Part shown: in pieces, positions 6,925 to 21,907 of the stretch
Numbering within the stretch: position 1 is the stretch's first letter
Layout: every line of letters starts with the position of its first letter
Origin: Candidatus Deferrimicrobium sp.
GTDB taxonomy: Bacteria; Desulfobacterota; Deferrimicrobia; Deferrimicrobiales; Deferrimicrobiaceae
DNA length: 64,000 nt
Reading direction: 5' to 3'
NCBI RefSeq assembly: GCF_036396855.1
Contig: NZ_DASWKA010000030.1
Span: forward strand, 12,103-76,102
Notes under the pieces: generated by a model
The model's input: only the letters and a program-made list of their open reading frames with translations
What the model was told of the DNA's origin: nothing
The model's database searches: none
Translations under genes and position numbers: made by a program

Positions 6925-6949
6925 AATCTTGTCGCGGGTTTGTTTTTCG

Positions 6950-6995
6950 TTGAACAAAGTACGCAAGTTTCTCCCCTCTCTCACCGATATTGAAT
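6950..6995 (+). promoter_or_regulatory. Conserved upstream element L1 (TTGAAC-AAAGTACGCAAGTT-N14-CCGATATTGAAT)
   Basis: A 46-bp element 33 bp upstream of the histidine kinase start. It recurs with the same spacing at 10543-10588. Confidence 0.5.
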
Positions 6996-7027
6996 CCGAA
7001 GGCAACCCATTCAGCGAGAGGATCCCG

Positions 7028-8938
7028 ATGGACCGGACAGCCGACAAACGCGCCTTCCGCAGCCCCGGCGCCTCCAAGGAGGAGCGAAAACGGCTTCGTG
7101 CCGTTTTCGACCTTTCCGGCGACGCCATCTTCCTCATCGACGGAGGGGGGCGTTTCCTCGATGTCAACCAGGTCGCCTGCGAACGCTACGGCTATGCCCG
7201 GGACGAGATGCTGCGGCGGCACGCGGGCGATTTAAACGTCCCGGAGCATGCCCCGCACTACGAGGGTCGGATGGCAACGCTCCGACGCGACGGCGCCGTC
7301 ATCTTCGAGACGGTGCACCAGGCGAAGGACGGCCGGCGTATCCCCACGGAAATCAGCTCGAGGCTCATCCGCGGGGGAGGCCCGGACTTCATCATCAGCG
7401 TCTGCCGGGACATTACGGAGAGGGTGAAGGCGGAGGAGGAGCAGCAGATCTTCAAGTCCCTCGTTGAGAACAGCACCGATCTCATCGGGATCGCCTCGCT
7501 GGACGGGAAGGTCTTCTACCTGAACAAGGCCGGCCTGAAGCTCGTCGGTCTGGACAGCCTGGGAGAAGAACGGAGAAGGAGGATTCAGGACTTCGCCCTG
7601 GAAAAGCACTTTAAACCGTTGCAGGAGATGCTTGCGTCTCTCTCGAAAGAGGGGACGTGGAAGGGCGAGGCAAGGATTCGTGACTTCATTACGGGGACGC
7701 CGATTCCGGTCGAGATCCACGGGTTCGCCATCAGGGACGACAAGACCGGGCAGCCGATCGCCCTCGCGGCCATCGTTCGGGACATCTCGGAGCGGAAAAA
7801 ACTGGAAGAGGAGATGGCGAGGGGCGACAAGCTGAATTCGATCGGCATCCTTGCCGGGGGGATCGCACACGATTTCAACAACCTCCTGACGGCGATCTTC
7901 GGGAACATCACGCTGGCGAAGATGTACGCGAACCGCCGGAGCGAGGTGTACAAGCGGCTGGAGGAATCCGAGAAGGCGGCGGAACGGGCGAGAGACCTGA
8001 CCCACCAGCTGTTGACGTTTTCGAAGGGCGGAGCGCCCGTCAAGAGGACGATCTCTCTTCAGGAACTGGCGAAGGAGTCGGCGAACTTCGTCCTGCGGGG
8101 ATCCAACGTCAAGTGTGAGTTCTCGTTTCCCCCCGACCTTTGGCACGTGGAGGCGGACGAAGGACAGATCAGCCAGGTGCTCAACAACATCATCATCAAC
8201 GCCACCCATGCGATGCGCGAGGGGGGGACCGTGCAGATGCACTGCGGGAATGTGGTCGTCGAACAGAGCGACCCGCCGCTGGCGAAGGGCAAATACATTT
8301 TGATTTCCATCATGGATCACGGGACCGGGATCACGAAGAAGCACCTGTCGAAGATCTTCGATCCCTATTTCACGACGAAGAAGAAGGGCAGCGGTCTTGG
8401 GCTGTCGACCAGCTATTCCATCGTCAGGAGCCATGGCGGGCATATAACGGCCGAATCCTTCCCGGGGATCGGCACGACCTTCAAGATTTACCTGCCGGCC
8501 TCCGGGGAGGGAATGCTGCTCCCGTGCGCCGAAGACGCACTGTTTGTCACGGGGAAGGGGAGAATCCTGGTGATGGACGACGAGGAGGCGGTCCGGGATG
8601 TCGCCCGGGGCATGCTGGAGGCCCTCGGCTACTCGGTGACGCTTGCGAAAGACGGGACGGAAGCGATTGATTTCTATAAAGCGGCGATGGTGGACGGAGA
8701 GCCGTTCGATTCGGTGCTCATGGATCTTACGATACCGGGCGGCATGGGCGGCATGGAAGCGGTGAAGAGGATCCTTGAATTCGACTCGAAGGTGAAAGCG
8801 ATCGTTTGCAGCGGATATTCCAACGACACGATCATGGCGAACTACAACAGCTTCGGTTTCCGCGCCGTCGTTCCCAAACCTTACAGCCTGAAGCAATTAG
8901 GCGGAGCCATCAGCGAAGTCCTCTCAGCGCCGCAGTAA
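7028..8938 (+). CDS. Hybrid sensor histidine kinase (PAS-PAS-HisKA-HATPase-REC)
   Basis: ATG at 7028 with a GAGAGGA RBS, inside ORF 6503..8938. It has two PAS-like segments, an H-box GGIAHDFNNLL, N/G boxes (NNIIINATHAM, DHGTGI, GSGLGLS) and a C-terminal receiver (ILVMDDEE...LMDLTIPGGMGG). Confidence 0.9.
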   Translation: MDRTADKRAFRSPGASKEERKRLRAVFDLSGDAIFLIDGGGRFLDVNQVACERYGYARDEMLRRHAGDLNVPEHAPHYEGRMATLRRDGAVIFETVHQAKDGRRIPTEISSRLIRGGGPDFIISVCRDITERVKAEEEQQIFKSLVENSTDLIGIASLDGKVFYLNKAGLKLVGLDSLGEERRRRIQDFALEKHFKPLQEMLASLSKEGTWKGEARIRDFITGTPIPVEIHGFAIRDDKTGQPIALAAIVRDISERKKLEEEMARGDKLNSIGILAGGIAHDFNNLLTAIFGNITLAKMYANRRSEVYKRLEESEKAAERARDLTHQLLTFSKGGAPVKRTISLQELAKESANFVLRGSNVKCEFSFPPDLWHVEADEGQISQVLNNIIINATHAMREGGTVQMHCGNVVVEQSDPPLAKGKYILISIMDHGTGITKKHLSKIFDPYFTTKKKGSGLGLSTSYSIVRSHGGHITAESFPGIGTTFKIYLPASGEGMLLPCAEDALFVTGKGRILVMDDEEAVRDVARGMLEALGYSVTLAKDGTEAIDFYKAAMVDGEPFDSVLMDLTIPGGMGGMEAVKRILEFDSKVKAIVCSGYSNDTIMANYNSFGFRAVVPKPYSLKQLGGAISEVLSAPQ

Positions 8939-8988
8939 CCGCCACGAAGGAAAACGCCCCCTTCCGGGGGCGCGGACATTCGTGGCGG
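8939..8988. terminator. Compound GC hairpin between convergent genes
   Basis: Outer inverted repeat ccgccacgaa(8939-8948)/ttcgtggcgg(8979-8988) encloses cgccccc-ttcc-gggggcg (8955-8972). No clear U-tail. Confidence 0.45.
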
Positions 8989-9062
8989 TCCTGATGCACG
9001 TCCTCCTCCGGGACGGGTGCGGCCGATATGCTCCGCCAGGGTGCGCTTGACAGGCGCCCCAT

Positions 9063-9473
9063 TCACTTCGGCACGGTCGGGTACCCGGCCTGGACCCAGG
9101 CGTCCCATCCCCCCTTCAGCACGGAGACCTTCGTAAACCCTTTCTCGATCAGCCGGAGCGCCACACCGGCGCTCGTTTGCTCGTTGCTTCAGGCGCAATA
9201 CAGGATCATGGGCTTGTTCTTGGAGTACCGCTTCTCCCATCCCCCCACGTCGTTCGGCTCTTCCCGCACCGCCCCGGCGATCTTGCGTTCGCTCCCTGTC
9301 CAATCCCTCCCGCTCCGGACATCCACAATGACGATTTCCGGGTTGCCCAAACGCTGCTTGAGTTCCTCCTTCGTGATCCGGGGAGGCTCCGCCGCTGAAA
9401 CTTCCCAGGAAACCGGTAAGGATGCCAACAGGAGGAACATCGCTCCGTAAGCGGCAATCCTTCTCTTTTTCAT
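9063..9473 (-). CDS. Periplasmic single-domain rhodanese, probable selenoprotein (in-frame UGA at 9191-9189)
   Basis: ATG at 9473 with a GGGAGGAG RBS, and signal peptide MKKRRIAAYGAMFLLLASLPVSWEVSAA. The rhodanese fold reads ...IVIVDVRSGRDW...KPMILYCA-[TGA]-SNEQTSAGVALRLIEKGFTKVSVLKGGWDAWVQAGYPTVPK*. The frame stays open for 41 more codons after the TGA and completes the domain. Confidence 0.7.
9156..9174 (-). promoter_or_regulatory. SECIS-like hairpin
   Basis: On the mRNA strand the hairpin is GAGCGCC-GGUGU-GGCGCUC (7-bp stem, G-rich apical loop). It starts 14 nt after the UGA. Confidence 0.6.
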
Positions 9474-9640: not shown

Positions 9641-9715
9641 ACTATATTCTAGCCGCGTCAGGCCATGGCGGGACCGGGGCCATGAATCTCACTGCCGGCT
9701 GCGTAAGGAGCGGCT

Positions 9716-10375
9716 ATGACGAAATCGACCACGGATCGGTATCTGGAAAACAACAAGCAGTATGCGGGCGGGCAGACGATACACAAGCCCTCTTACCCTG
9801 GAAAGCTGCCGATTCACCCGGCCAGGCGCGTGTCGGTCGTGGCCTGTATGGATGCGCGGCTTGACGTCGAGGACCTGCTCGGCCTGCAGACCGGCGACGC
9901 GCACATCATCCGCAACGCCGGTGGCGTGGTGAGCGACGATACGATTCGCTGCCTCATCGTCTCGCATCATCTGCTGGACACAAATGAGATCCTCCTGATT
10001 CACCATACCCGCTGCGGCATGCTCGCCTTCACGGATGATTTGCTCAAAGCCGGCCTGGAGGGAGACCCGGCGGCCGGGAAACTGCTTGCTCAGGCGACGG
10101 GGCGCGCTTTCACGAGCTGCAAGAAATCCGCGGCGATGCCGTCCGCGTTCCACGCCTTCCGCGGCCAGATCGAACCGCTCGATGCTCCGCGCGACGCGAA
10201 GCAAACGGAACGCCTCGAGTGGGACGTGCGGCGGGGGATGTCTTCGATCCTGAACCATCCGTGGATCCCGACCGGCGGGCCGGACGCGGTCACTGTGCGC
10301 GGATTCATCTACGACGTGGATACCGGGAAGCTGGAGGAAGTGGGCTATCCGGGGCCCATGGGATCGATCCGATAA
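9716..10375 (+). CDS. Beta-class carbonic anhydrase family protein
   Basis: 219-aa ORF with an AAGGAG RBS. Zn-ligand motifs are VVACMDARL and HHTRCGM. The C-terminal [14 protein letters not shown] is typical of the small beta-CA clade. Confidence 0.85.
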
Positions 10376-10389
10376 CGGCGGTCCCAGTG

Positions 10390-10524
10390 CCCCCGAAGGG
10401 GGTACCCCAGGGAGCGCGTTATATCCGGGAGTGGGGCGGGGGAACCCCGCTCTATGAACGGCAGGTAATATGCGTGGCGGTCCCAGCGGGGTTCGAACCC
10501 GCGTTTTCGCCTGGGAGGGCGCCG
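10390..10524. repeat. Repeat copy A: 85-bp R element plus a 3' fragment of tRNA-Glu
   Basis: 10475-10511 is identical to the 3' 37 nt of the tRNA-Glu gene at 21755-21791, with degenerate similarity to about 10524. 10390-10474 is homologous to 15465-15552. Confidence 0.8.
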
Positions 10525-10542
10525 ACGTACGATTACGGGAAT

Positions 10543-10588
10543 TTGAATAAAGTACGCAAGTTATAGCACCATCCTACCGATATTGAAT
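10543..10588 (+). promoter_or_regulatory. Conserved upstream element L2 (copy of L1)
   Basis: TTGAAT-AAAGTACGCAAGTT-N14-CCGATATTGAAT, with the same 46-bp geometry as 6950-6995. Confidence 0.5.
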
Positions 10589-10619
10589 GGGAAGCTTATC
10601 CCATGACGGGAGGAACCCG

Positions 10620-10766
10620 ATGGCCCGAAAGGCAGACCGGCACGTCCCCGGCGGACCCCGCGCTTCCATGGAGGAGCTGGAACGGCCCCGCTCCGTCGTT
10701 CCGAAACCTTGCAGCCTGAAGCAATCGGGCGGGACCATCAGCGCTGTTCTCTCGGCGCCGCTTTGA
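10620..10766 (+). pseudogene. Collapsed relic of a paralog of the 7028..8938 histidine kinase (48 codons, still in frame)
   Basis: The relic reads MARKADRHVPGGPRASMEELERPRSV|VPKPCSLKQSGGTISAVLSAPL*. The kinase at 7028..8938 has N-terminus MDRTADKRAFRSPGASKEERKRLRAV and C-terminus VVPKPYSLKQLGGAISEVLSAPQ*. DNA similarity is visible on both sides, and the relic is preceded by the L2 leader. Confidence 0.6.
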
Positions 10767-10787
10767 TGCCCCGGGTGAATTGATCGG

Positions 10788-12785
10788 ATGGCCCACCAGC
10801 ACGTCGTCAGCGACTACATGGAGCACGGCGCCTGCTTTTCCTGGGAACCGGGACTTGTAGCGCTCCACGTCATCTCCGACATCGTAACCGGCATCGCGTA
10901 CTTTTCCATCCCCGCCGCACTGTTCTACTTCGCTTACAAGCGGCGGGACCTTCCCTTCCACGGCGTAATTCTCCTCTTCGGGATTTTCATCCTGGCGTGC
11001 GGGACCTCCCATTTCCTGGCGGCCTATACGGTATATGTCGCCGACTACTGGATCGAAGGGGGGGTGAAGGCGTTTACGGCGTTGATCTCGGCGGTGGCCG
11101 CCTTTTACATGATCCCCCTGATCCCCGATGCCATCGCGATGCCCAGTTTGACGAAGTCATTGAAACAGAACAAGGAGCTGAACGCGCAACTGGAAAGAAA
11201 ATTGGACGAACTGAACGGGAAAACCCGGGAACTCATGGAAACCAACCGTGAACTGAACCTCAGCGAAAGCCGTTTCCGAGTGCTGGTCGAGCATGCCCCG
11301 GACGCCATCGTCGTGTACGACGCAACGCAGAACAGGTTCGTGGACGCCAATGCCAATGCGGATCGTCTTTTCGGATGCAGTCGCGAGGAGCTCCTGGCAT
11401 CCGGACCGCCGCGGTTTTACGCATCGGCGCAGCCGGATGGGTTTCCCCCCGCTGAGAGCATGGAGAAGATGATCGAACGGGCCCTGGCCGGAGAAACATT
11501 GCTGTTCGAGCGAGCGGTGCACAACGCGGAAGGGAAGGATCTTCTTTGCGAGGTGCGGCTGGCACGATTGCCTTTTACGGATCGCAACCTGATGCGCGGC
11601 AGCTTCATCGACATCACCGAACGGAAGAAACTGGAGGAACGGTTGCGCCAGTCGCAGAAGATGGAGTCGGTCGGAAGGCTTGCGGGGGGCATCGCCCACG
11701 ACTTCAATAACCTCCTGACGGTGATCACCGGGTACAGCGAGCTCATGCTGAGCCAGCTTGAAGAGAGGTCGCCGCTGGTCAAGGAAGTGGAGGAAATCAA
11801 GCGGGCCGGCGAGCGGGCATCGTCGCTTACGCAGCAACTTCTTGCGTTCAGCCGACGCCAGGTGCTGCAGCCGAGGGTGATCGACCTGAACGAGGTGGTC
11901 TCCCGCGTGGAGAAAATGCTCCGCCGGTTGATCGGGGAGGACGTGGAGCTCCGGACGGTCCCGGGTGCGGGGCTGTGGAGCGTAAAGGCCGACCCGGGTC
12001 AGATCGAGCAGGTCCTGGTCAACCTCGTGGTGAACGCAAGGGATGCGATGCCCGGCGGCGGGGTGCTCACCATCGAGACGGGCAACGTGTTTCTCGACGA
12101 GGAATATTCCCTCGGGCATCTCCCCGCGCAGTCCGGCCATTACGTCATGCTCGCCGTCAGCGACACGGGAGTGGGGATGGACGAGAGGACGAAGTCGCAG
12201 GTCTTCGAGCCCTTCTTTACGACGAAGGAATCGGGGAAGGGGACGGGGCTCGGGCTCTCCACCGTATACGGAATCGTCAAGCAGAGCGGGGGCTACATCT
12301 GGGTGTACAGCGAGCCCGGCAAGGGATCGACGTTCAAGGTCTACATTCCGCGCACGGAGGAGCGGGAGGATGGTCCACGCAAGGCGGTCCCGCCTGTCGA
12401 GGATCTTCGCGGGGAGAAAACCGTTCTCATTGTCGAAGACGAGGAATCGATTCTGAAATTGTCCTGCGCCGTTCTCGGTGGATACGGGTACGCGGTTCTT
12501 GCGGCGCGCGGCGGGGAGGATGGCCTTCGGATCGCCGGGAAGCACGAGGGGGAGATCAGCCTGCTCCTGACCGATGTGGTCATGCCCGGGATGGGGGGAA
12601 GGGAGTTGTACGAGCGGATTCTGCAGCAGCGACCGAAGATCAAGGTCCTTTACATGTCCGGCTATACGGACAAAGCGATCGTTCGCCGGGGTGTGCTGGA
12701 TCCGGGGACGTCTTTCCTGCAGAAGCCTTTCTCGCCGATTTCCCTGGCCCGGAAAGTGAAGGAGGTCCTTGAACCCCGGGCGTAA
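10788..12785 (+). CDS. Hybrid histidine kinase with N-terminal ethylene-binding-domain-like membrane module (EBD-PAS-HisKA-HATPase-REC)
   Basis: 665-aa ORF. Residues 27-120 align without gaps to Arabidopsis ETR1 helices 1-3 (ISD, IAYFSIP, FG.FI..CG..H, IP). After that come a coiled coil, a PAS domain, the H-box GGIAHDFNNLL, an ATPase domain and a receiver. Confidence 0.9.
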   Translation: MAHQHVVSDYMEHGACFSWEPGLVALHVISDIVTGIAYFSIPAALFYFAYKRRDLPFHGVILLFGIFILACGTSHFLAAYTVYVADYWIEGGVKAFTALISAVAAFYMIPLIPDAIAMPSLTKSLKQNKELNAQLERKLDELNGKTRELMETNRELNLSESRFRVLVEHAPDAIVVYDATQNRFVDANANADRLFGCSREELLASGPPRFYASAQPDGFPPAESMEKMIERALAGETLLFERAVHNAEGKDLLCEVRLARLPFTDRNLMRGSFIDITERKKLEERLRQSQKMESVGRLAGGIAHDFNNLLTVITGYSELMLSQLEERSPLVKEVEEIKRAGERASSLTQQLLAFSRRQVLQPRVIDLNEVVSRVEKMLRRLIGEDVELRTVPGAGLWSVKADPGQIEQVLVNLVVNARDAMPGGGVLTIETGNVFLDEEYSLGHLPAQSGHYVMLAVSDTGVGMDERTKSQVFEPFFTTKESGKGTGLGLSTVYGIVKQSGGYIWVYSEPGKGSTFKVYIPRTEEREDGPRKAVPPVEDLRGEKTVLIVEDEESILKLSCAVLGGYGYAVLAARGGEDGLRIAGKHEGEISLLLTDVVMPGMGGRELYERILQQRPKIKVLYMSGYTDKAIVRRGVLDPGTSFLQKPFSPISLARKVKEVLEPRA

Positions 12786-13032: not shown

Positions 13033-15396
13033 ATGCCCCTGCTCGCGGGCATCCGATCCGCTTATATCCCGATGGCTCCCATCACCTCGATCGCCCTGGC
13101 TTGCCTCGGGGGGCTGCTCCTCGTTATCTCGGTGGGCCCCTCGCAAGGTTTGGTGGGCATGCTCGCAGTCGTGATTTCCGCGCTCATTTCGGCATACGGG
13201 CTGATCGAGCTCGTGGAAGCCCTGGGAATCCCCTTACTCTCCCTGGAAGAACGGCTGTTTCCCCATCCTCCGATGGTGGGTGCGATCCCCACCGGCCGCA
13301 TGTCACCGACAACGGCGGGTCTCCTGCTCCTCGCGGGAGCGGTTGTCCCGTTGCACTCTCTCCGCGAGCGGGGAGGGGAGCGCCGGAAGCTTCTCGGAGA
13401 CCTGGCCGGGTGTCTGGGGATTCTCGTGGCGATGGGCGGGATGGTGGTCGTCCTGAGCTATCTGCACGGGACCCCTCTTCTGTATGGCACCCTGACGATT
13501 CCGATGGCGGCTACGACCGCGCTCGCGTTCCTGTTGCTGGGAACGGGGCAGCTCCTCGCGATGGGACCGGACGGGTTCCCGTCGAGGCTGTTCTCGGGGC
13601 ATTCGGTCCGGGCCAGGCTTCTCCGGGCGTTCGTCTCGACCACGGTCGGTGTCGTGGTGGCGATCGACCTGTTGCACGTCTATGCCCGTGGAGTTTTCTT
13701 CGAAGACAACGCAATCCTGTCCGGTGTTTCCGCCACGGCCGTCGCCGTGATAACGGGTGCGCTGATCGCAAGAGTGGCCTTGAAGGTCGGCGACGACATG
13801 GACCGTTCCGAAGAAATCCGCAGGGAGGCGGAGGACAAACTTCGCGAGAGCGAGGATCGGTATCGGGACCTTGTGGAGCACAGCCAGGACCTCATCTGTA
13901 CGCACGATCTGGAGGGTCGCATCCTCTCCGCGAATCCGTGGGCTGCAACGATCCTGGACTACGCCCCGGAGGAGTTGTTGCGAATGAATTTCCGCGAACT
14001 TCTCGTGCCGGAAGTTCGTCATGAGTTCGAAAGATACCTGGAAAAGATCAGGATGCATGGCACCGCGCGGGGCCTGATGCGGGTTCAGACGCGCAATGGC
14101 GACCGGCGCCTCTGGGAATACAAGAACACCTTGCGTACGGAAGGATTGGCGGAACCGATCGTCCGCGGGATGGCGCATGACGTCACCGAGAGCAAGCGGG
14201 CGGAGGCGGAAAAGCGGAACCTGGAAGAGCAGGTCCGGCGGACGCAGAAGCTGGAGAGCCTGGGCGTGCTGGCCGGCGGGATCGCGCACGACTTCAACAA
14301 CATCCTGATGGCCGTGCTGGGGCACGCCGAGCTGGCCCTCGCCGAAATATCCCCGATGTCCCCCGCCCGCCGGAACATCACCGAGATCGCGACCGCGGCG
14401 CGCCGTGCCTCCGAACTGTGTCGGCAGATGCTGGCGTACGCCGGCAAGACGTCCATCGCGTTGGAGCGGGTGGTGCTGCGGGATCTGGTCGAGGAGATGG
14501 CGCACCTGCTCAAGACCGCGATCTCGAAGAAGGCGATCCTTAACCTGAACCTGGAGCGGGGCCTTCCGCCGATCGAGGCGGATCCGAGCCAGATCCGGCA
14601 GATCGTAATGAACCTGATCATCAACGCCTCGGAAGCGATCGGGGACCGGAGCGGGGTGGTCACCGTATCGGTGGGCGCGACGCGTTGCGACGAGGAGTAC
14701 CTGAGCAGGACGGAACTTCGGGAGACGCTGGCGCCCGGGCTGTACCTCCACCTGGAGGTGGCGGATACCGGCTGCGGGATAGGCGAGGAGACGCGATTGC
14801 GAATCTTCGAGCCGTTCTTCTCCACCAAGTTCACGGGGCGGGGACTGGGACTGGCCGCCGTCCTGGGGATCGTCCGGGCGCACAAGGGGGCGCTGAAGGT
14901 GTACAGCGAACCCGGGAAGGGTACGACGTTCAAGATCCTCTTCCCGGCGACGGAAGGACCGGTGGAGGGAGCACGGACCATCGAGCCCGCCCCGCTGGCC
15001 GACTGGCGGGGGAAGGGGACGATCCTGCTGGTGGACGACGAGGAGAGCCTGGTCGCCCTGGGGGCGCGGATGTTGGAGCACCTGGGCTTCACCGTACTGC
15101 TGGCGTCGGACGGCCTGCAGGCGGTGGAGCTGTACCGGGAACGGGGGAAGGAGATCGACATGGTGCTGATGGACCTGACGATGCCGCACATGGACGGCGC
15201 GGAAGCATTCGGGGAGCTGCGCCGGCTGAACCCCGCCGTCCTGGTGGTCCTCGCCAGCGGGTACAGCCACGAAGACGTGGCGTCCCGCTTCGCGGGGAAG
15301 GGTCTCAACGGGGTGTTGCAGAAGCCGTATTCCCTTCTCAAGCTCCGGGAATCGCTCGCCGGATTGTTGCCGAAACGACAGGAGGGGGATGCGTGA
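13033..15396 (+). CDS. Hybrid histidine kinase with a multi-TM N-terminal sensor (TM-PAS-HisKA-HATPase-REC)
   Basis: 787-aa ORF with several hydrophobic helices in the first ~250 aa. It has a PAS domain, the H-box GGIAHDFNNIL, an ATPase domain and a receiver (ILLVDDEES...LMDLTMPHMDG). The frame is open upstream to 12895 (see findings). Confidence 0.9.
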   Translation: MPLLAGIRSAYIPMAPITSIALACLGGLLLVISVGPSQGLVGMLAVVISALISAYGLIELVEALGIPLLSLEERLFPHPPMVGAIPTGRMSPTTAGLLLLAGAVVPLHSLRERGGERRKLLGDLAGCLGILVAMGGMVVVLSYLHGTPLLYGTLTIPMAATTALAFLLLGTGQLLAMGPDGFPSRLFSGHSVRARLLRAFVSTTVGVVVAIDLLHVYARGVFFEDNAILSGVSATAVAVITGALIARVALKVGDDMDRSEEIRREAEDKLRESEDRYRDLVEHSQDLICTHDLEGRILSANPWAATILDYAPEELLRMNFRELLVPEVRHEFERYLEKIRMHGTARGLMRVQTRNGDRRLWEYKNTLRTEGLAEPIVRGMAHDVTESKRAEAEKRNLEEQVRRTQKLESLGVLAGGIAHDFNNILMAVLGHAELALAEISPMSPARRNITEIATAARRASELCRQMLAYAGKTSIALERVVLRDLVEEMAHLLKTAISKKAILNLNLERGLPPIEADPSQIRQIVMNLIINASEAIGDRSGVVTVSVGATRCDEEYLSRTELRETLAPGLYLHLEVADTGCGIGEETRLRIFEPFFSTKFTGRGLGLAAVLGIVRAHKGALKVYSEPGKGTTFKILFPATEGPVEGARTIEPAPLADWRGKGTILLVDDEESLVALGARMLEHLGFTVLLASDGLQAVELYRERGKEIDMVLMDLTMPHMDGAEAFGELRRLNPAVLVVLASGYSHEDVASRFAGKGLNGVLQKPYSLLKLRESLAGLLPKRQEGDA

Positions 15397-15464: not shown

Positions 15465-15600
15465 CCCCCGAAGGGGGTACCCCTGGGAGCGCGATATATC
15501 CGGGAGTGGGGCGGGGGGGAACCCCGCTATATAAACGGCAGGCGGTTATTCGTGGCGGTCCCAGCGGGGTTCGAACCCGCGTTTTCGCCGTGAGAGGGCG
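15465..15600. repeat. Repeat copy B: 88-bp R element plus the 3' 48 nt of tRNA-Glu (attL-like)
   Basis: 15553-15600 is identical to 21755-21802 (tRNA-Glu from its 3' end into the anticodon loop). 15465-15552 is homologous to 10390-10474. Confidence 0.85.
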
Positions 15601-15688
15601 TTAAATAGCCCTTTCAGCATCATCCCGCATAACGTCCCATCGAAGTAGTACCCTACAGAATGTACTGAATTATAACCGTTAATAACGC

Positions 15689-16570
15689 TTGACGGTAACA
15701 CCGAACTGGGCGATCCGCACGGAATTCTCCCTCCTCCACGGCCGGGCGTTCCGAAGTCTTAAACGGATCACGACCGTGAAGGCCCTCTTTTACTTCTACG
15801 AAAAGCGCGTCGTGAAGGTGGACAAGCGGAAACGTGGCGATAAGCGATTCCAGGTCCAGCACGACGCGGAGATCAAGTTTTCCTACAAGGAAGCAGAGCA
15901 GCGGGGACTGACGCGAAAGCGGTTCGCGCAGGCGATCCGGGATCTTCATGCGGCCGGATTCATCGACATCCTCTATCGCGGCAGCGGGGCGCTGAAAGAT
16001 AGTTCCACCTATCGGTTGAGTGAACGGTGGAGGCGGTTCGATACTCCGGACTTCAAGGCCCAGGACATTCCCCTGCGTCTCCGGGAAGAACCGACGAAGA
16101 ATCTGGAACACGACGAAAAAGGAAGGTGGACCCGGGAAGAGGAAAAACCTCAAGTGGTCGAAATGCCCCTTGCTCAAGGGTCAAAACGTCCACTTGAGAT
16201 AACCGTACAAGGGTCAAACCGTCCACTTGAAAGGGGCGATTTCGACCAATCTTCAAGGGTCATAACGTCCACTGAACTAAGTACTACCAGGGGTAGCACT
16301 CGGATTCGGACTGTGAAGAAGGTTAAAAGAAAGACTCGGACCCGCGGTCACGGTTCAAAAGCTATCGCGGCCCCATTGAAAACGAAAATTCGACCCGCTG
16401 CAATTCCTACATGGCCGGATCAAAGCAAGGTACTCGACCTATGCGACAAGCTCCTCCTCGACTCCCTGGAGCGGTTCGGGGATGACGGCCGACCTCACCC
16501 CGAGATGGAGACGGCGCGGAACCTTATCAAGATCATCAACCGGGCGGTGGGAAGCGAGGCGGTGAACTGA
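15689..16570 (+). CDS. Phage/plasmid-type DNA-binding, replication-initiator-like protein
   Basis: 293-aa ORF (TTG start). The N-terminal pattern TPNWAIR...FRSL...AKALFYF...SYKEAEQRGLTRKRFAQAIRDLHAAGFI is typical of winged-helix proteins of integrative elements. The gene contains three iterons. The functional call is inference. Confidence 0.5.
   Translation: MTVTPNWAIRTEFSLLHGRAFRSLKRITTVKALFYFYEKRVVKVDKRKRGDKRFQVQHDAEIKFSYKEAEQRGLTRKRFAQAIRDLHAAGFIDILYRGSGALKDSSTYRLSERWRRFDTPDFKAQDIPLRLREEPTKNLEHDEKGRWTREEEKPQVVEMPLAQGSKRPLEITVQGSNRPLERGDFDQSSRVITSTELSTTRGSTRIRTVKKVKRKTRTRGHGSKAIAAPLKTKIRPAAIPTWPDQSKVLDLCDKLLLDSLERFGDDGRPHPEMETARNLIKIINRAVGSEAVN
16175..16275 (+). repeat. Three direct 22-23-bp iterons (CAAGGGTCAAAACGTCCACTTGA)
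   Basis: Copies at 16175-16197, 16208-16230 and 16254-16275 lie inside the rep-like ORF and encode the repeated QGSKRPLE/QGSNRPLE. Confidence 0.75.
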
Positions 16571-16788
16571 TGAGCACAAAGGAAACCAACACCATGATCA
16601 CCACGGTGGACACGATCACGATCACCGATCCTGACCCGTGCCGGGCTACCCGGTGCGATATGCAGGACAGTCCCACGTCGGCGTGTCGTAAGAGGGGCTG
16701 CGGCTTCGAGTGGAGCAAAACAGCCCGGCTCGACCGCAAGGCGAGGGAAGAGAAGGACAGGAAGGTGAGGGAGAACGTATGCCGATGA
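16570..16788 (+). CDS. Small Cys-rich hypothetical protein
   Basis: 72-aa ORF whose ATG overlaps the upstream stop by 1 nt. It has several Cys (CRATRCD...CRKRGCG). No recognisable family. Confidence 0.4.
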   Translation: MSTKETNTMITTVDTITITDPDPCRATRCDMQDSPTSACRKRGCGFEWSKTARLDRKAREEKDRKVRENVCR

Positions 16789-17126
16789 AGCCGAGGAAGC
16801 CGTGCAAGGGTCCACTCTGTCCGGGTCTGACATCAACGAAGTATTGCGACCGGCACGCCCACCTCGAACAGCAGGACAAGGCGAGATGGGATGCACGGCG
16901 CGGGAGCGCAAAGGAACGCGGGTACGGAGGATCCTGGTCAGCGGCCCGGCTGATGCACCTTCGGAATAGCCCGCTCTGCTACGACTGCGGCAGGCCCGCC
17001 ACGCTGGTCCACCATATCGTACCTATCAGCGAAGGCGGGCCGCGGCTCGACATGGACGGGCTGATGAGCTTATGCGTCGGATGCCACGGCAAGCGGCACG
17101 GCAACGATGCGAGGGCGAAGGGATGA
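16779..17126 (+). CDS. HNH endonuclease (phage packaging-associated type)
   Basis: ATG at 16779 follows GGTGAGGGAG. Motifs are CYDCGRPATLVHHIVPISEGG...LMSLCVGCHGKRH (HNH/zinc finger). It lies just upstream of the small terminase gene. Confidence 0.8.
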   Translation: MPMKPRKPCKGPLCPGLTSTKYCDRHAHLEQQDKARWDARRGSAKERGYGGSWSAARLMHLRNSPLCYDCGRPATLVHHIVPISEGGPRLDMDGLMSLCVGCHGKRHGNDARAKG

Positions 17127-17268
17127 ACCGTAACTCCTTGCTATGGAAGGAGATACCGGGGCGGCCTTCGATCATACCCAATGATGCCCCACGACCGACC
17201 GGTGAGGTGGAAACGCGTGAGACCCGCCGCGAACGAGAATTGGCAATTTCAAAAAGGAGATTTTGGCG

Positions 17269-17616
17269 ATGACAGCGACCTCTCGTAAAGCTCCCCGGGC
17301 TCCCGGTCACCTCTCCAAGCCCGCCCGGAAATGGTGGTCGGGCGTCATGGAGTGCTACGAGATCGAGGAGCACATGATCCAGACGGTGACAGCGGCGGCG
17401 GAGGCCTGGGACCGGAAGGAGATGGCCCGGGAGATCCTCGGCAAGGAAGGATTGACCATCGACTGCCGGGACGGGAAGAAAACGCATCCCGCCGTCGGGA
17501 TCGAGCGGGACAGCAGGCTCGCCTACCTCCGGGCCGTCCGCGAGCTGTGTTTATCCGCCGAAGATCCGGAGGATTCCCGCTCGCCGGGACTTCGCTACCC
17601 CGGGAGGAGGTATTAA
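17269..17616 (+). CDS. Phage terminase small subunit, P27-like
   Basis: ORF 17263..17616 with ATG at 17269 after AAGGAG. The sequence pattern (PGHLSKPARKWW...EEHMIQTVTAAAEAWDR...GLTI...GKKTHPAV...RDSRLAYLRAVRELCL) resembles the P27 small-terminase family. Confidence 0.65.
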   Translation: MTATSRKAPRAPGHLSKPARKWWSGVMECYEIEEHMIQTVTAAAEAWDRKEMAREILGKEGLTIDCRDGKKTHPAVGIERDSRLAYLRAVRELCLSAEDPEDSRSPGLRYPGRRY

Positions 17617-17618
17617 AA

Positions 17619-17834
17619 ATGCCGATCAAGAAAAAACTGGCACGTAAGGTTCCGCGGCCCGCTCCGCTGAAGCCGGATGTGTTTCCCCTTCTCCAAACCG
17701 GCGAGGAGATTGATTGGTTCGCCTTCGACCTTTCGTATGGTGACAATGCGCGTGAACTATTCGAACGTGTCCGGGGCGACTACCCCGCGGGGACGTTCCC
17801 GTGGGCGGAGCAGAGATTCGGGCGGGCGGGCTGA
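17619..17834 (+). CDS. Hypothetical phage-like small protein
   Basis: 71 codons with a strong GGGAGGAGG RBS. It is tightly packed after the small terminase gene. Confidence 0.5.
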   Translation: MPIKKKLARKVPRPAPLKPDVFPLLQTGEEIDWFAFDLSYGDNARELFERVRGDYPAGTFPWAEQRFGRAG

Positions 17835-17836
17835 CG

Positions 17837-18091
17837 ATGCCGACACGTTTACGAACTGGAAAACGTTCATCCCGCTTAGGCGGACTTTCCGAGGTTGCGT
17901 ATCGTTATTTCGGCGAAGGACCGTTTTTCGAGGCGGAGAGATTCGAGCAGCAGACCTCGCCGGCGGAGCGTGCCGGGATTTGGAGGGCGCACCGGGCCGC
18001 GATCATCGAAAGATGGCGCGTCGAAAACCCTGCAAACATCGACCTGGGAACCTGGGGCGAACACCTGGAGGGGGCCGCACATGCCAACTAA
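17837..18091 (+). CDS. Hypothetical small protein, paralog 1 (MPTRLRTGKR...)
   Basis: ATG lies 2 nt after the upstream stop. It shares the N-terminus and a W..HR..I..RW motif with the next gene. Confidence 0.5.
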   Translation: MPTRLRTGKRSSRLGGLSEVAYRYFGEGPFFEAERFEQQTSPAERAGIWRAHRAAIIERWRVENPANIDLGTWGEHLEGAAHAN

Positions 18092-18398
18092 GCTACGGAC
18101 GGGAAAACGACAGACGCGGCTCTCCGAGGACCGCATGGCGCACCTGGTATCGGGGACGTGCCTGGACTCCCCCGTCCGCTGGCACTCCCGGCTGCATTAC
18201 CCCTTCAAGGATGAGAAGCACCGCCGGGCCGTCTGGTTCCAGCACCGCGAGGAGATTGTCGCCCGATGGGGGCCGGTTGAGCTGTTGCAGGCGTGGGCGG
18301 ACTACGAGGCGACGGAGGAGCAGAAGGCGGCCTTCGATCATTCCGGTACGCCGAACCCGTTCCGGACCTACCAGCAGGAGGAAGCCGATGCCGACTGA
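18081..18398 (+). CDS. Hypothetical small protein, paralog 2 (MPTKLRTGKR...)
   Basis: ATG at 18081 overlaps the upstream gene by 11 nt. It carries the motif VWFQHREEIVARW. Confidence 0.5.
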   Translation: MPTKLRTGKRQTRLSEDRMAHLVSGTCLDSPVRWHSRLHYPFKDEKHRRAVWFQHREEIVARWGPVELLQAWADYEATEEQKAAFDHSGTPNPFRTYQQEEADAD

Positions 18399-18645
18399 CC
18401 GTGACAAGTTACTCGCCGATTTCGTAACGGCTGCGCTTGAACTGATGAAGGAAGGGCTCTCCGGGCTCAACGTCGAGAAGGCGTTTCACGTCTCCCGGGC
18501 GCAACAGATGGGCGCGGATGTCGTTTTGGTTTTTGCTCCCGGCGCCGGGACCGTGGTCGGGTGTCTCCATTTTCCCGACCCGGACGCCGATACGCCGGAG
18601 CTTTTCCGGATCGTGGTCCCCTTTCCGGAAGGGGTGTCGAATTGA
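18388..18645 (+). CDS. Hypothetical small protein
   Basis: 85 codons. The ATG overlaps the upstream stop (ATGCCGACTGA). Confidence 0.45.
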   Translation: MPTDRDKLLADFVTAALELMKEGLSGLNVEKAFHVSRAQQMGADVVLVFAPGAGTVVGCLHFPDPDADTPELFRIVVPFPEGVSN

Positions 18646-18864
18646 TTTCCTCCCTTCGCTTCTCATGCGTCGGGAAGATGAACCTGTTTCACCTGGCGCG
18701 GATCGCCGACGAGAGTGCGGCCCTCCGCTTTCATCCCATCAACACGCGCTCGCATGGCGACCACGGCGAGAGAACGAAGGCGTCACGGCGCGCAAACCCA
18801 TCAACACGGTGGGCAAATTCAGATAGCTTTGTGAACCGACAATTAAATAACGAAAGGATTCGTC

Positions 18865-20133
18865 ATGCCATACAAAACGATCAAGGCCGAAATCGCGTCT
18901 ATGGGCGGCTTGATTTCGGAGCTTCGCGAGAAAGCCCAGCACTTCAACAGACCGCTCACCGCGAAAGAATCGGCGCTCTGCGCCGATGCGGAGCTCAAGA
19001 TCAACGAACTCCGGATGGAACTTCCCGCGAATGAACCGCTGACCCTCCAGGGGCCGGGCGGCGGCTCGCCCCGGGCCATCAGCGGGGGCAGCAATACCGG
19101 CGGCTTCGAGAGCGTCGGCGAGATCATGCAGGCCCTCTACCGGCGCTCCAAGGGCGAGGGGATGGATCCCCGGCTCGAACCGCTCCAGGTGCGGGCGGGG
19201 ATCAATGAAACGGTCCCGAGTCAGGGAGGATTCGCGGTTCCGGAGCAGCTCATCTACAAGGCCTTCACGGAAGACCTCCAGGACACGGTGCTCCTGCAAC
19301 TGTGCGACAAGGTGACAATGACCAGCGACAAGCTGGGCGTCCCGATTTTCGGGGACGACTCGCACTCCACCTCGGCTCCCTTCGGGATCACCTGGGACCA
19401 GATCCCCGAGTCCGGCACCTTCGGCGACTTCCAGTCGGTCCCCTTCAAGAAGCTGCAACTTCACGCCTACAAGTCCGGGGCGCTTTTCTCCGCGTCGAAC
19501 GAATGGCTCTCCGATGCGGATCCCGCCATGCGCGCCCGGCTGGAGAACATCTTCCAGGCGTCTTTGCGGTGGTACGTCGAAAGCAAGCTGTGGAACGGAA
19601 CGGGGGCGGGCCAGGCGCTCGGGGCGCTCAATGGCGACGGGGCGCTCGAAATCCCGAAGGAGACGGGCCAAACCGCGGACACGATCATGACGGAGAACAT
19701 CGTCAAGATGTGGGCGCGGCTCCGGCCGGGATCCCACAACCGGGCAATATGGGCGGCGAATCCGACGACGTTTCACATGTTGGCAACTTTGGCTGTTTCA
19801 ATTGGGACCGGAGGGAGCGTGGTTTCTCTTCTTCAGCCCTCCGGGATCGCGGGGGCTCCGGCAACCTCGATCCTCGGGCGGCCGCTCTACCTCTCGGAAC
19901 ACCTCCCGGCGCTCGGGGATGCGGGCGACATCTGCCTCCTCGACCCCATGCTGTACGTCCTTGGGGACCGGAAGCAGATCACCGTGGATGCCTCACCTCA
20001 CATCAGATTTCAATATGACGAGACGGCGTTCCGTGTTCAATCCAGATTCGACGGCCAACCCGCGCTCTCTTCGGTCCTGACTCCGGCCAATGGCGACACG
20101 TGCGCCTGGCTCGTGAAGATCGCGGCGAGGTGA
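18865..20133 (+). CDS. HK97-family phage major capsid protein homolog
   Basis: 422-aa ORF with an AAAGGA RBS. An N-terminal coiled-coil/scaffold-like segment precedes a body typical of HK97-type capsid proteins (...VPSQGGFAVPEQL...LPALGDAGDICLLDP..Y...R). Confidence 0.8.
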   Translation: MPYKTIKAEIASMGGLISELREKAQHFNRPLTAKESALCADAELKINELRMELPANEPLTLQGPGGGSPRAISGGSNTGGFESVGEIMQALYRRSKGEGMDPRLEPLQVRAGINETVPSQGGFAVPEQLIYKAFTEDLQDTVLLQLCDKVTMTSDKLGVPIFGDDSHSTSAPFGITWDQIPESGTFGDFQSVPFKKLQLHAYKSGALFSASNEWLSDADPAMRARLENIFQASLRWYVESKLWNGTGAGQALGALNGDGALEIPKETGQTADTIMTENIVKMWARLRPGSHNRAIWAANPTTFHMLATLAVSIGTGGSVVSLLQPSGIAGAPATSILGRPLYLSEHLPALGDAGDICLLDPMLYVLGDRKQITVDASPHIRFQYDETAFRVQSRFDGQPALSSVLTPANGDTCAWLVKIAAR

Positions 20134-20151
20134 TGATCCGAACTTCCACCC

Positions 20152-20173
20152 GGGGGCGGCTTCGGCCGCTCCC
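20152..20173 (+). terminator. UUCG-tetraloop hairpin after the capsid gene
   Basis: gggggcggc-ttcg-gccgctccc forms a 9-bp stem including one G.U. The U-tail is weak. Confidence 0.45.
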
Positions 20174-20541
20174 TGCTTCCCCCTGCCGAGTAATTGCGGC
20201 GGGGCCGTCCCGAAAGGGGCGGGATACTGACCCGGCGTTTTCATACGGTTTCTCGCGATCGGTGACGCCTTCCCGTGCCGGGGCCGCCGCAAGGCGGTGT
20301 GATCGGGCAGGTGAAGCGGGCGCGGATCATCGCGAACCTCGGCATCCTTCCGGGCGACAGCAGCCCGCGGGAGTGCCCCGAAAGCGACCTCGTTCGTCGA
20401 GGGCCGTCGCGAGGCGGTAAATGGTGGAAAGGTCGCGAGCTGTGACGGGACGGGGGCATCACAGGCGGTCCTTCGGGGCCGCTTCCCCCTCCCCGGATCT
20501 TCGAGCAAGCATTACAACTTTGCGTTGTAACTCTCCCGGAG

Positions 20542-20907
20542 GTGTCACGATTGCCATCCTCTCCCCGCGGCTGGTTCTGTAGATCGACCTATACCCTCGA
20601 TGCGCAGGGGCGGCCCTTTTCGCCTCGGCTGGAATACACGGGATGGACGGATCGACGGATGAACGACTCCCGGGAGACGGCGCTGTCCGTGAAGATCATG
20701 GCGGAGCGGGCGTCTCATGCGGTATGCGGGAATGGTGTCGGGTACAAGCTGCTGTTGGACTACTATGCGGGCGAGGTGTCCTGGTGGAGCTTCACGGAAC
20801 CGGAGCAAGCGATCCTCCGGAAGACCATCCGGCATTTCTCGAAGGCGCTCCGCGAGGCGGGATTCCTACCGGATGACGATGGGCACGCATCCCGGGCGAG
20901 TCCTTGA
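20542..20907 (+). CDS. Hypothetical protein, possible island regulator
   Basis: 121-aa ORF. TTG at 20551 fits the GGAGG at 20538-20542 better than GTG at 20542. It is preceded by the palindrome TTACAAC-N5-GTTGTAA (20512-20530). Confidence 0.4.
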   Translation: MSRLPSSPRGWFCRSTYTLDAQGRPFSPRLEYTGWTDRRMNDSRETALSVKIMAERASHAVCGNGVGYKLLLDYYAGEVSWWSFTEPEQAILRKTIRHFSKALREAGFLPDDDGHASRASP

Positions 20908-21104
20908 ACGGTAACGCTCCCCGGCGTGCGGCCATCGGTGGGGGCTCTTGACGGCTTGCGGTGGATCGGCCCGCACCTCCCCCCAGGCGATCTCGCGGAT
21001 GGAAGAAGTTCCCTCCGGGAAAATCATCGAAGAAAGAAACTTCCTAACGGGAATATAAGTCCAATTTTGGAGTTTTATAAAATCCAGCCCAAGGGAGGCG
21101 GAAA

Positions 21105-21671
21105 ATGAAACGGTTCAATAGGTATCTCTCCAAAGCGATTTGTTGCGTGGTTCTACTGTTACCACTGGCCTTCATCGGTGCGGGTCAGGCGGTAGCGGCA
21201 CCGGCTACACCGAATGTAAATGTCGTCAATACACCGACTGTACTTGTCGGAAATACTCCATTGCCGGTGTTTGACGTAGACAACCCTGCGAGTCAGCCTT
21301 TCCAGGCATCTGCACAATTTACGATGAGTGGGATTGGGCCAGTATTCAGCGTTACTTCCGACATTACTGTTGTACCTGCTGGAAAGATGCTTGTGATTGA
21401 GCATGTCACTTTTATTGGCGCAACGGGGTCGCCGGGGAAAATAGGAGCGAGTATCTCAAACTCAATAGCTGGTCCGGGAAGGACTCATTGGTTGGTATTA
21501 ACAGAGCAAGGCGCTCTATTTGGTACTCCTGCTTTCATGGCAAATCAACCGATGCGTTTGTATGCCGGCCCCGGGACAACAGTTCGAGGTCATGCCTTTC
21601 GCAGCATAGATTCAATTGATGCAAGCGCGGGCGCATTTAGCATCTCTGGACATTTTGTCGATATTCCATAG
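21105..21671 (+). CDS. Secreted hypothetical protein, AT-rich cargo gene
   Basis: 188-aa ORF with an AAGGGAGG RBS and signal peptide MKRFNRYLSKAICCVVLLLPLAFIGAGQAVAA. It is visibly AT-richer than everything around it. Confidence 0.6.
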   Translation: MKRFNRYLSKAICCVVLLLPLAFIGAGQAVAAPATPNVNVVNTPTVLVGNTPLPVFDVDNPASQPFQASAQFTMSGIGPVFSVTSDITVVPAGKMLVIEHVTFIGATGSPGKIGASISNSIAGPGRTHWLVLTEQGALFGTPAFMANQPMRLYAGPGTTVRGHAFRSIDSIDASAGAFSISGHFVDIP

Positions 21672-21713
21672 GGAAGGTGTTATGAGTACCGTTATGAGTG
21701 AGGCGTAAAAGAG

Positions 21714-21746
21714 AAGGGGTTTTCGGCATATAACCGAAAACCCCTT
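21714..21746. terminator. Bidirectional intrinsic terminator
   Basis: A 13-bp stem aaggggttttcgg/ccgaaaacccctt with a 7-nt loop is T-rich on both sides. It serves the cargo gene (+) and the tRNA operon (-). Confidence 0.7.
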
Positions 21747-21754
21747 TGATTTCG

Positions 21755-21830
21755 TGGCGGTCCCAGCGGGGTTCGAACCCGCGTTTTCGCCGTGAGAGGG
21801 CGGCGTCCTGGGCCACTAGACGATGGGACC
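21755..21830 (-). tRNA. tRNA-Glu (anticodon CUC)
   Basis: The 76-nt sequence GGTCCCATCGTCTAGTGGCCCAGGACGCCGCCCTCTCACGGCGAAAACGCGGGTTCGAACCCCGCTGGGACCGCCA closely resembles E. coli tRNA-Glu. The anticodon loop is CUCUCAC and CCA is encoded. Confidence 0.95.
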
Positions 21831-21833
21831 GGC

Positions 21834-21907
21834 TGGCTGGGGAGCCAGGGCTCGAACCTGGAAACCGTGGGTCAGAGCCACGTGTGATACCATTTCACCA
21901 CTCCCCA
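21834..21907 (-). tRNA. tRNA-Gln (anticodon CUG)
   Basis: The 74-nt sequence is TGGGGAGTGGTGAAATGGTATCACACGTGGCTCTGACCCACGGTTTCCAGGTTCGAGCCCTGGCTCCCCAGCCA. It has the UGGGG...CCCCAGCCA acceptor typical of tRNA-Gln and the anticodon loop CUCUGAC. Confidence 0.95.

Follow-up and report, generated by a model that had tools for sequence, protein, structure and literature searches.

Is a small island that encodes a small terminase subunit (TerS) and a full-length major capsid protein (MCP), and no large terminase subunit (TerL), portal or protease, the residue of a decayed prophage or a phage satellite? The question is raised by an insertion next to a tRNA-Glu gene in Candidatus Deferrimicrobium (contig NZ_DASWKA010000030.1; the 64-kb stretch of DNA that was analysed is hereafter called the window), a host that belongs to the candidate phylum MBNT15, or Deferrimicrobiota (PMC9386147). 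NCBI assigns to Candidatus Deferrimicrobium sp. the proteins that match the island's HNH and o85 at 100% identity. A preliminary description of this DNA had favoured a satellite-like element over a deleted prophage. We arrive at the same preference from the relatives of the island, which lack TerL, portal and protease and, where complete, measure about 10 kb. Quite probably the island belongs to a family of ~10-kb satellites that integrate into tRNA genes and resemble phage-inducible chromosomal islands (PICIs), as a reduced member that has no integrase.

All genes of the insert lie on the plus strand. Models of its open reading frames (ORFs) rest on database gene calls and on conservation rather than on a simple GC3-based gene caller, which missed or mis-stranded small genes. 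The HNH endonuclease, P27-type TerS and full-length HK97-type capsid genes announced in the preliminary description were borne out by Pfam and PHROG matches and by the fold of an AlphaFold2 (AF2) model, and its four small genes were recovered as tightly packed ORFs of 71, 84, 105 and 85 aa, separated by 2-nt gaps or overlapping by 11 nt (Table 1). The absences held as well. Pfam and PHROG scans found no TerL, portal, protease, tail or lysis gene among the island ORFs, and tblastn detected no similarity anywhere in the window to TerL, portal or protease (queries from two true phages) or to an integrase (five family integrases, E<=1), nor any integrase remnant.

The island belongs to a family in which this gene set is the rule. 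Searching the protein collection with the island's MCP returned 554 homologs, of which ~70 share 45-92% identity before values drop to ~40% and below; the mean identity within the MCP clade is 57%. We read the genomic context of loci with usable flanks (L006, L008, L009, L060, L062, L063, L011, L012, L014-L016, L020-L023, L049 and L074-L077) using database Pfam annotations, Pfam scans of concatenated ORFs and tblastn, all of which agreed. Integrase, HTH_17, Rep and MCP genes occur together in L006, L008, L009, L060, L062, L063 and L074-L077, with TerS annotated in L006, L060, L062 and L063 and found by tblastn in L074. Pfam scans give the same gene picture for L049, L011, L021 (complete), L012 and L015. 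More specifically, family elements encode a tyrosine integrase, one or two HTH_17 proteins (AlpA/Xis-like), often a cI-like HTH_3/31 protein, a Rep or primase-helicase and, in most cases, a TerS of the Terminase_4 type. Conserved small ORFs, the MCP gene and cargo that varies from element to element (SIR2_2, for example) complete the set. TerL, portal and protease are found in none of the relatives examined with usable flanks (MCP at least 45% identical), and tail genes in none except for a tape-measure-like ORF in L012. The relatives occur in 'deltaproteobacterial' and Planctomycetota metagenome-assembled genomes (MAGs).

Complete relatives also agree in size. Five of them are bounded by direct repeats of the 3' part of a tRNA gene: L011 (tRNA-Met, 49-nt repeat, 10,089 nt), L021 (tRNA-Thr, 50-nt repeat, 10,074 nt), L014 (tRNA-Met, 46-nt repeat, 10,324 nt), L063 (tRNA-Met, 47-nt repeat, 10,235 nt) and L062 (tRNA-Pro, 49-nt repeat, 10,534 nt). 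A sixth, L049 from IMG/VR, has an exact 127-nt terminal overlap; it is therefore circular or concatemeric, and its unit measures 10,254 nt. Despite different integrases, Reps and cargo, all six fall between 10.07 and 10.53 kb, and convergence on 10.1-10.5 kb is the pattern that a packaging-size constraint would produce. For comparison, the satellite P4 carries 11.6 kb in a T=4 head.

Genuine phages stand apart from these loci. In control tblastn searches, the TerL, portal and protease of two phage contigs matched only loci whose MCP is at most 38% identical. One of the two, L056, has the order Int-HNH-TerL-portal-S49 protease-MCP, with a TerS homolog placed by tblastn between HNH and TerL; the other, L071, reads HNH-TerS-TerL-portal-ClpP-MCP. 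The split between satellite-type loci and phages equipped with TerL, portal and protease is clean. This bears on the view that the island is a decayed prophage, that is, an HNH-TerS-TerL-portal-protease-MCP phage at tRNA-Glu from which TerL, portal, protease, tail, lysis and integrase genes were deleted internally. The HNH-TerS...MCP order of the island is indeed colinear with L056 and L071, which carry TerL, portal and protease in between, and its integrase is missing. Yet relatives carrying a full prophage, the observation that the preliminary description had named as telling against a satellite, did not turn up among the loci examined: the complete ones are bounded by tRNA repeats or circular at ~10 kb. 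Since the TerL-less state is the conserved and complete state of the family, a simple internal deletion of a prophage is ruled out.

Individual relatives show further particularities. L012, from a Sedimentisphaerales MAG, adjoins a tRNA-Glu(CTC) gene; its tape-measure-like gene (Tape_meas_lam_C, 765 aa, 6814-9111), the only tail-related gene among family members, lies directly upstream of a satellite-type MCP gene, with HNH and TerS downstream. L016, from an uncultured delta proteobacterium MAG, is a clearly decayed remnant, unlike the intact ORFs of the window island: its MCP gene (10001-11221) is frameshifted into at least three pieces, and its neighbours look cellular by eye. L063 carries the defence-type gene SIR2_2 within the element (9663-10694), and in L060 a ParE/antitoxin pair lies just past the tRNA-Met end of the element (8589-9137). 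IMG/VR lists L049 and L050 as viral genomes (UViG 3300036766_001228 and 3300005145_000037) despite their lack of TerL, portal and tail genes.

What, then, fills the space that TerL, portal and protease occupy in phages? Right after TerS, in the TerL slot, the island carries o71, o84 and o105. These belong to a single family of paralogs that also takes in the N-terminal halves of proteins of 161-180 aa from L049 and L011. The fourth small gene, o85, has 54 homologs at 58% identity or more, 54-97 aa long (most 82-86 aa); its AF2 model is confident (pLDDT 89.9), and Foldseek found no match to it at E<0.1 in PDB or BFVD. We calculated ratios of nonsynonymous to synonymous substitution (dN/dS) by the Nei-Gojobori method against close relatives with unsaturated dS (0.47-0.94). 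Values were 0.13-0.23 for the MCP gene, 0.14-0.39 for o85, 0.12-0.17 for o71 and 0.28 for TerS against L018; o84 gave 0.31 against L018, where dS is higher (1.17). The small ORFs are real genes under purifying selection (dN/dS 0.12-0.39).

The packaging genes upstream have a composite history. TerS scored 29.5 bits (E=5.8e-7) against the P27 equivalog TIGR01558, below its 45.6 cut-off, and matched phrog_83. The HNH gene lies directly upstream of it, the position it has in L056 and L071, and its product keeps the Zn-binding Cys residues and the catalytic His. The preliminary description took HNH for the element's own packaging gene. Its place upstream of TerS stands; as a family trait it does not, for the closest relatives (L018, L060 and L074) have no HNH gene, which makes it a recent, lineage-specific addition. 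Its nearest phage homolog, 63% identical, is in the true phage L071. Of the HNH-TerS intergenic region, the left 64 nt are shared with L073 and travel with HNH, and the right 30-50 nt are shared with L018 and L074 and travel with TerS; this region may act as a cos site. The middle Asn of the HNH motif is replaced by Gly (DGLMSLC) in the island and its three closest homologs, and is retained in more distant homologs, phage copies included. With o71, o84 and o85 being conserved family genes under selection and no debris, and with HNH a late arrival in the island's lineage, decay from a prophage is a very improbable origin.

The capsid protein is phage-like in sequence and predicted structure. 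It scores 103.6 bits against PF05065 (cut-off 24.2), and in its AF2 model (pLDDT 80.4) the chain adopts the HK97 fold. Foldseek gave a probability of 1.00 to the capsids of HK97, T5, Mycofy1, the Rhodobacter gene transfer agent (RcGTA) and the capsid-forming PICI (cf-PICI) EcCI2 (9gyi), at target-normalised TM scores of 0.6-0.69. The model also contains a helical N-terminal domain of ~110 residues that is missing from the matched mature capsid chains, for which reason we call it delta-like. The nearest MCP of an isolated phage, that of Streptomyces phage Dagobah, is 38% identical.

These features speak to a further alternative, that no satellite is involved and that the capsid gene, carried by an ordinary integrative element, works for the cell or in its defence, whether as an encapsulin-like compartment, as a GTA-like particle or as an anti-phage decoy or sensor. 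In its favour, the structural matches include the RcGTA capsid, the cargo of some relatives is of a defence type (SIR2_2, for instance), and no helper is known. Against this, the capsid gene accompanies TerS in several relatives and HNH in a few, both DNA-packaging proteins for which a compartment has no role. Moreover, the family match is to Phage_capsid with a delta-like domain, the portal, TerL and tail-like genes that a gene transfer agent needs are missing, and the uniform size of the elements fits a small-capsid payload. We regard a cellular role as highly unlikely.

Capsid genes have moved between members of the family. In the complete relative L074-L077 (~9.9 kb), TerS is 89% identical to that of the island, o71 72%, o84 52% and o85 87%, and the MCP only 35% (L074 10470-11810 against 18865-20133). 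The capsid gene has thus been exchanged between otherwise near-identical modules, and cassette-like exchange of this kind would be expected if the MCP must match a particular helper. Directly downstream of the L074 element comes a gene for the gamma subunit of pyruvate:ferredoxin oxidoreductase (PF01558), whose start is overlapped by the integrase ORF of the element.

We next turn to the ends of the island. A repeat finder located a 52-nt direct repeat, both copies identical, consisting of 48 nt of the tRNA-Glu 3' part and 4 nt past the tRNA end; the preliminary description had rightly called the repeat perfect and had given its length as 48 nt. Chance would be far too unlikely a source of a perfect repeat of this length. 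Between the copies lie 6,150 nt, so that the unit with one copy measures 6,202 nt. The island thus shows both marks of a tRNA-integrated genomic island, flanking direct repeats of the tRNA 3' part and an intact adjoining tRNA gene, and it recurs at the same integration site with 99-100% identity in several independent metagenome assemblies (ENA, JGI and Logan). A third, slightly diverged copy of the tRNA-Glu fragment belongs to a ~100-nt unit (10420-10521, against 15496-15600) that also repeats the 53 nt preceding the distal repeat, GC hairpin included. Between the two copies of this unit lie two genes for hybrid kinases of the PAS/HisKA/HATPase/REC type (10788-12785 and 13033-15396), which gives the tRNA-Glu locus the look of two integrase-less segments arranged in tandem; the duplication of flank together with core is unexplained by simple tandem integration.

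The preliminary description had called the island integrase-less. Complete relatives differ from it in this respect: those examined carry integrase and HTH_17, and the island falls ~4 kb under the family norm. In L063, the att repeat is followed by the 2155-2235 stretch, then by a promoter of the form TTGACG-17-TATAAT, a pair of GTTATGAGT repeats and, last, the integrase gene. In the window, homology to this left arm ends directly after TTGACGGTAAC, and the rep ORF then begins. At the right arm, a pair of GTTATGAGT repeats (21679-21687 and 21691-21699; 52 nt from the core) recurs unchanged close to the att sites of L063 (12237-12257) and L060. Such pairs are probably arm-type sites of the integrase; the island keeps the right-arm pair only, the integrase-side pair of L063 being missing. 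The two elements are otherwise colinear (left arm, rep, TerS, MCP, o118, right arm), with three blocks lacking in the island: Int, a 196-aa gene and HTH_17 (~2.4 kb); the two genes following the MCP gene; and cargo with a second HTH_17 module (~2.6 kb). In turn, the island has gained HNH, an extra o84 paralog and a lower-GC 188-aa gene. Because both ends match the att-proximal arms of an integrase-bearing element and the genes between are colinear, the missing integrase is a secondary loss and not a design feature.

Is this copy still mobile? Most likely it is stranded, or can be moved only by an integrase acting in trans, rather than fully functional, because integrase, regulators and the left arm-site pair are missing, its size is off the norm, and no empty-site or junction contig was seen. 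The perfection of both 52-nt core repeats and the intact ORFs argue against stranding. They also favour the rival possibility of a 'minimal' satellite, functional at 6.2 kb, which would obtain integrase in trans from a related resident satellite or a helper, in the manner of cis-mobilisable elements that have att sites at their ends and no integrase, and might be packaged as a multimer. Indeed, no tRNA function constrains the distal core repeat, and yet both copies are perfect; one arm-site pair is retained, the three att-like copies form a tandem array as after accretion events, and the same island is present in several metagenomes. Nevertheless, the arm-site pair that adjoins the integrase gene in L063 is gone, the window holds no integrase, neither empty site nor circular junction was seen, and 6.2 kb is far from the family's 10.1-10.5 kb. 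Moreover, both HTH_17 modules are absent, so that induction control is missing. A still-mobile minimal satellite is, on balance, unlikely.

Several observations weigh against membership in a satellite family as we have drawn it, or against its working in this copy. The excised circle and the helper for which the preliminary description had proposed to look did not emerge. No circular junction of this copy was present in the assemblies compared, and a look-up of the flanking GltX gene gave occupied sites only. The 63% identical HNH of L071 is the sole connection to a phage, and no helper was identified. Rep, cos and regulator roles have no family-level match. L049 comes from a predicted-virus collection and may or may not stem from a virion preparation. 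Expression of rep in this copy is uncertain: its sole full-length start is a TTG that coincides with the -35 box of the L063 integrase promoter, with no visible ribosome-binding site. Finally, at 6.2 kb the island has ~60% of the size to which the family appears constrained.

Some candidate findings were set aside. The 6,210-nt Logan contig L004 was considered as an excised circle. Its ends, however, fall 22 nt inside the left repeat and 30 nt inside the right one, exactly as expected of a k=31 unitig that runs from one repeat copy to the other, and it is therefore no evidence of a circle. L071 is not convincing as a helper, because its TerS and MCP are unrelated to those of the island. A 5' truncation of Rep, suggested by alignment with L060-type Reps, is not established, because an L022-type Rep aligns from residue 7.

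Combining these observations, we propose how a complete member of the satellite family would operate. A tyrosine integrase with an AlpA/Xis-like HTH_17 protein would insert the element into a tRNA gene and excise it, and Rep would fire an iteron origin lying within its own gene. The P27-type TerS, in some members helped by the HNH nuclease, would steer the TerL of a helper to element DNA. The HK97-type MCP with its delta-like scaffolding domain would build or co-build a small head fitting ~10 kb, and the helper would supply portal, maturation protease, TerL, connectors and tail. Given that the elements hold no virion genes beyond capsid and TerS, borrowing the rest of a helper's particle is the most likely way for the family to spread; dependence on a helper, specificity of packaging and formation of small capsids would follow from this scheme. 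By analogy with the systems discussed below, the island's own MCP may redirect capsid size.

Table 1. Features of the island and its surroundings (positions in the window).
Feature	Position	Strand	Basis or remark
Third tRNA-Glu fragment copy	10473-10521		Slightly diverged, 96% over 50 nt
Distal att copy	15549-15600		tRNA-Glu 3' fragment + 4 nt; perfect 52-nt direct repeat
Left att-proximal arm	15601-15699	+	15619-15699 88% identical to L063 2155-2235
Rep-like gene	15689-16570 or 15776-16570	+	293 aa if started at TTG 15689; 264 aa if started at GTG 15776 (gene callers' choice)
Candidate origin inside rep ORF	16149-16276		Three 23-nt iterons (16175-16197, 16208-16230, 16254-16276) and inverted partial copy (16149-16172)
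72-aa Cys-rich small protein	16570-16788	+	Homologs follow rep in L011, L060, L063, L073, L074
HNH endonuclease, 115 aa	16779-17126	+	PF01844 E=2.2e-7; phrog_144 E=2.7e-27
HNH-TerS intergenic region	17127-17268		Cos region of the preliminary description
TerS, P27 / Terminase_4 type, 115 aa	17269-17616	+	PF05119 26.7 bits, cut-off 24.7
o71, 71 aa	17619-17834	+	
o84, 84 aa	17837-18091	+	
o105, 105 aa	18081-18398	+	Extra copy in the island's lineage
o85, 85 aa	18388-18645	+	Just upstream of capsid gene in many relatives; absent e.g. from L011, L049
HK97-fold MCP homolog, 422 aa	18865-20133	+	PF05065 E=1.6e-29
Conserved noncoding block	20216-20520	+	Downstream of capsid gene; common to L049, L020, L018, L062, L006
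o118, conserved 118-aa family gene	20551-20907	+	Homologs in 8 relatives
o188, 188 aa	21105-21671	+	Signal-peptide-like N-terminus (by eye)
Right att-proximal arm	21676-21746		Two GTTATGAGT repeats, then 14-bp hairpin (21714-21746)
tRNA-proximal att copy	21751-21802		Inside intact tRNA-Glu(CTC) gene
tRNA-Glu(CTC), intact	21755-21830	-	ARAGORN and Rfam
tRNA-Gln	21834-21907		ARAGORN and Rfam

The genes outside the packaging set are less readily assigned. The preliminary description's rep-like gene with embedded iterons was found again, a repeat finder locating all three iterons within the ORF; in translation, the Rep ORFs of relatives have a different repeated-peptide stretch at the equivalent part. 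The N-terminal domain contains a winged-helix-like motif (FSYKEA..GLT...A..LH..GFID), the protein matches no family in Pfam, PHROGs or NCBIfam, and profile searches against PDB sequences gave nothing significant. The ORF is conserved in relatives, some distant ones having AAA_25 or Prim-Pol in its place. The same searches returned no family and no significant PDB sequence for o118, which is under purifying selection (dN/dS 0.16-0.39; 0.30 against close relatives) and might, at a guess, be a regulator; Pfam and NCBIfam scans matched HTH_17, HTH_3 or MerR in no island ORF. The AT-rich gene noted earlier is o188, whose stretch has a GC content of 0.48-0.51 against ~0.62 for the island; it matches no family and is absent from every relative compared.

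A noncoding block downstream of the capsid gene is also conserved (L049 731-1100; L020 5291-5408; L062 6553-6699; L018 3360-3640; L006 11275-11552). It is GC-rich, follows the capsid gene or, in some relatives, the ~155-aa gene after it, contains several hairpins with GAAA, GCAA or UUCG loops and ends in the ribosome-binding site of the next gene. Rfam has no match for this block, whose minimum free energy is not unusual (z-score -0.75). In RNAalifold some hairpins show compensatory changes, yet the covariation term is unfavourable. Possible roles of the block are those of a leader RNA, a regulatory RNA or a packaging site.

How does the family compare with known satellites? The preliminary description's likening of the island to cos-type PICIs and to SaPIbov5 is apt. 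In SaPIbov5 the capsid-protein homolog Ccm takes up the pentamer positions of the capsid and forces the small T=4 size (PMC5052747, PMC8569155). Like SaPIbov5, the island is small and integrated, has a replication module of its own (putative here) and an HK97-fold capsid homolog with a delta-like N-terminal domain, lacks TerL, portal and protease and would need an HK97-like helper. The two differ in packaging, SaPIbov5 having no TerS and carrying the cos site of its helper, whereas the present elements encode a P27-type TerS and the island also HNH. They differ as well in the capsid protein: Ccm is ~19% identical to the helper capsid protein, and the present MCP is full-length and well conserved, within its clade and relative to an isolated phage. 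Hosts are Firmicutes in the one case and Deferrimicrobiota and Planctomycetota in the other, and the island copy has no integrase.

cf-PICIs build their own capsids (bioRxiv 10.1101/2022.09.08.507074) and by definition also bring genes for TerL, portal, protease and head-tail adaptors and connectors (PMC10085698). With cf-PICIs such as EcCIEDL933 and EcCI2 the present elements share an own HK97 MCP, TerS, HNH and, in the proposed scheme, the borrowing of remaining parts; in contrast, TerL, portal, protease and head-tail adaptor or connector genes are absent from the island and the relatives examined. The SatelliteFinder model of classical PICIs comprises int, an alpA/merR/stl regulator, a primase-replicase, a capsid-morphogenesis gene and TerS (PMC10085698). 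Complete relatives have this five-function layout, a similar small size, integration at a tRNA gene or fixed site and a TerS that would redirect packaging, whereas the island copy has three of the five functions, two of them putative (replication and capsid morphogenesis), and misses integrase and the alpA/merR/stl regulator. Unlike in classical PICIs, the capsid gene is a full MCP and not a Cpm- or Rpp-type factor, and in the island's lineage Rep is a predicted iteron-type initiator, with no detectable primase or helicase domain. P4, a small integrative hijacker of helper virions, has a similar payload and uses cos packaging; it remodels the helper capsid through Sid and Psu and has no MCP. 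PICMIs (phage-inducible chromosomal minimalist islands) and marine VEIMEs (virion-encapsidated integrative mobile elements) lack a major capsid gene, and their concatemers are packaged in full-size heads (PMC10803314, PMC9618062); as small integrative elements that hijack helper virions they resemble the scheme proposed for the present family, from which they differ in having no MCP.

Full-text literature searches found no paper linking phage satellites with Desulfobacterota, Planctomycetota or Deferrimicrobium, which is no proof of novelty. New here is a family of probable PICI-like satellites in which the counterpart of Ccm is a full-length MCP; the window copy is a degraded member. More tentatively, the family may be a widespread and undescribed class of satellites between PICIs and cf-PICIs, whose members would bring their own shell protein and TerS, use the portal, protease, TerL and tail of a helper, swap the capsid cassette to suit different helpers and inhabit phyla in which satellites have not been reported (Deferrimicrobiota/MBNT15, 'Deltaproteobacteria' and Planctomycetota); the 6.2-kb copy could then be a second-order parasite using the integrase of a sibling satellite. 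If so, satellites would extend to environmental phyla that have no cultured phage-host systems, and an MCP with TerS, and without TerL or portal, in a ~10-kb element would serve as a hallmark for mining metagenomes. Virus-prediction pipelines that call by capsid hallmark pick up these non-virus elements as 'viral', as the two relatives in IMG/VR illustrate. A structural question would also arise, namely how a foreign delta-domain MCP assembles on a helper portal and is processed by a helper protease. Known satellites either take over a whole capsid, as do P4, the Staphylococcus aureus pathogenicity islands (SaPIs), PLE and PICMIs, or build a complete one, as do cf-PICIs; elements that contribute the shell protein and TerS alone would represent a third division of labour.

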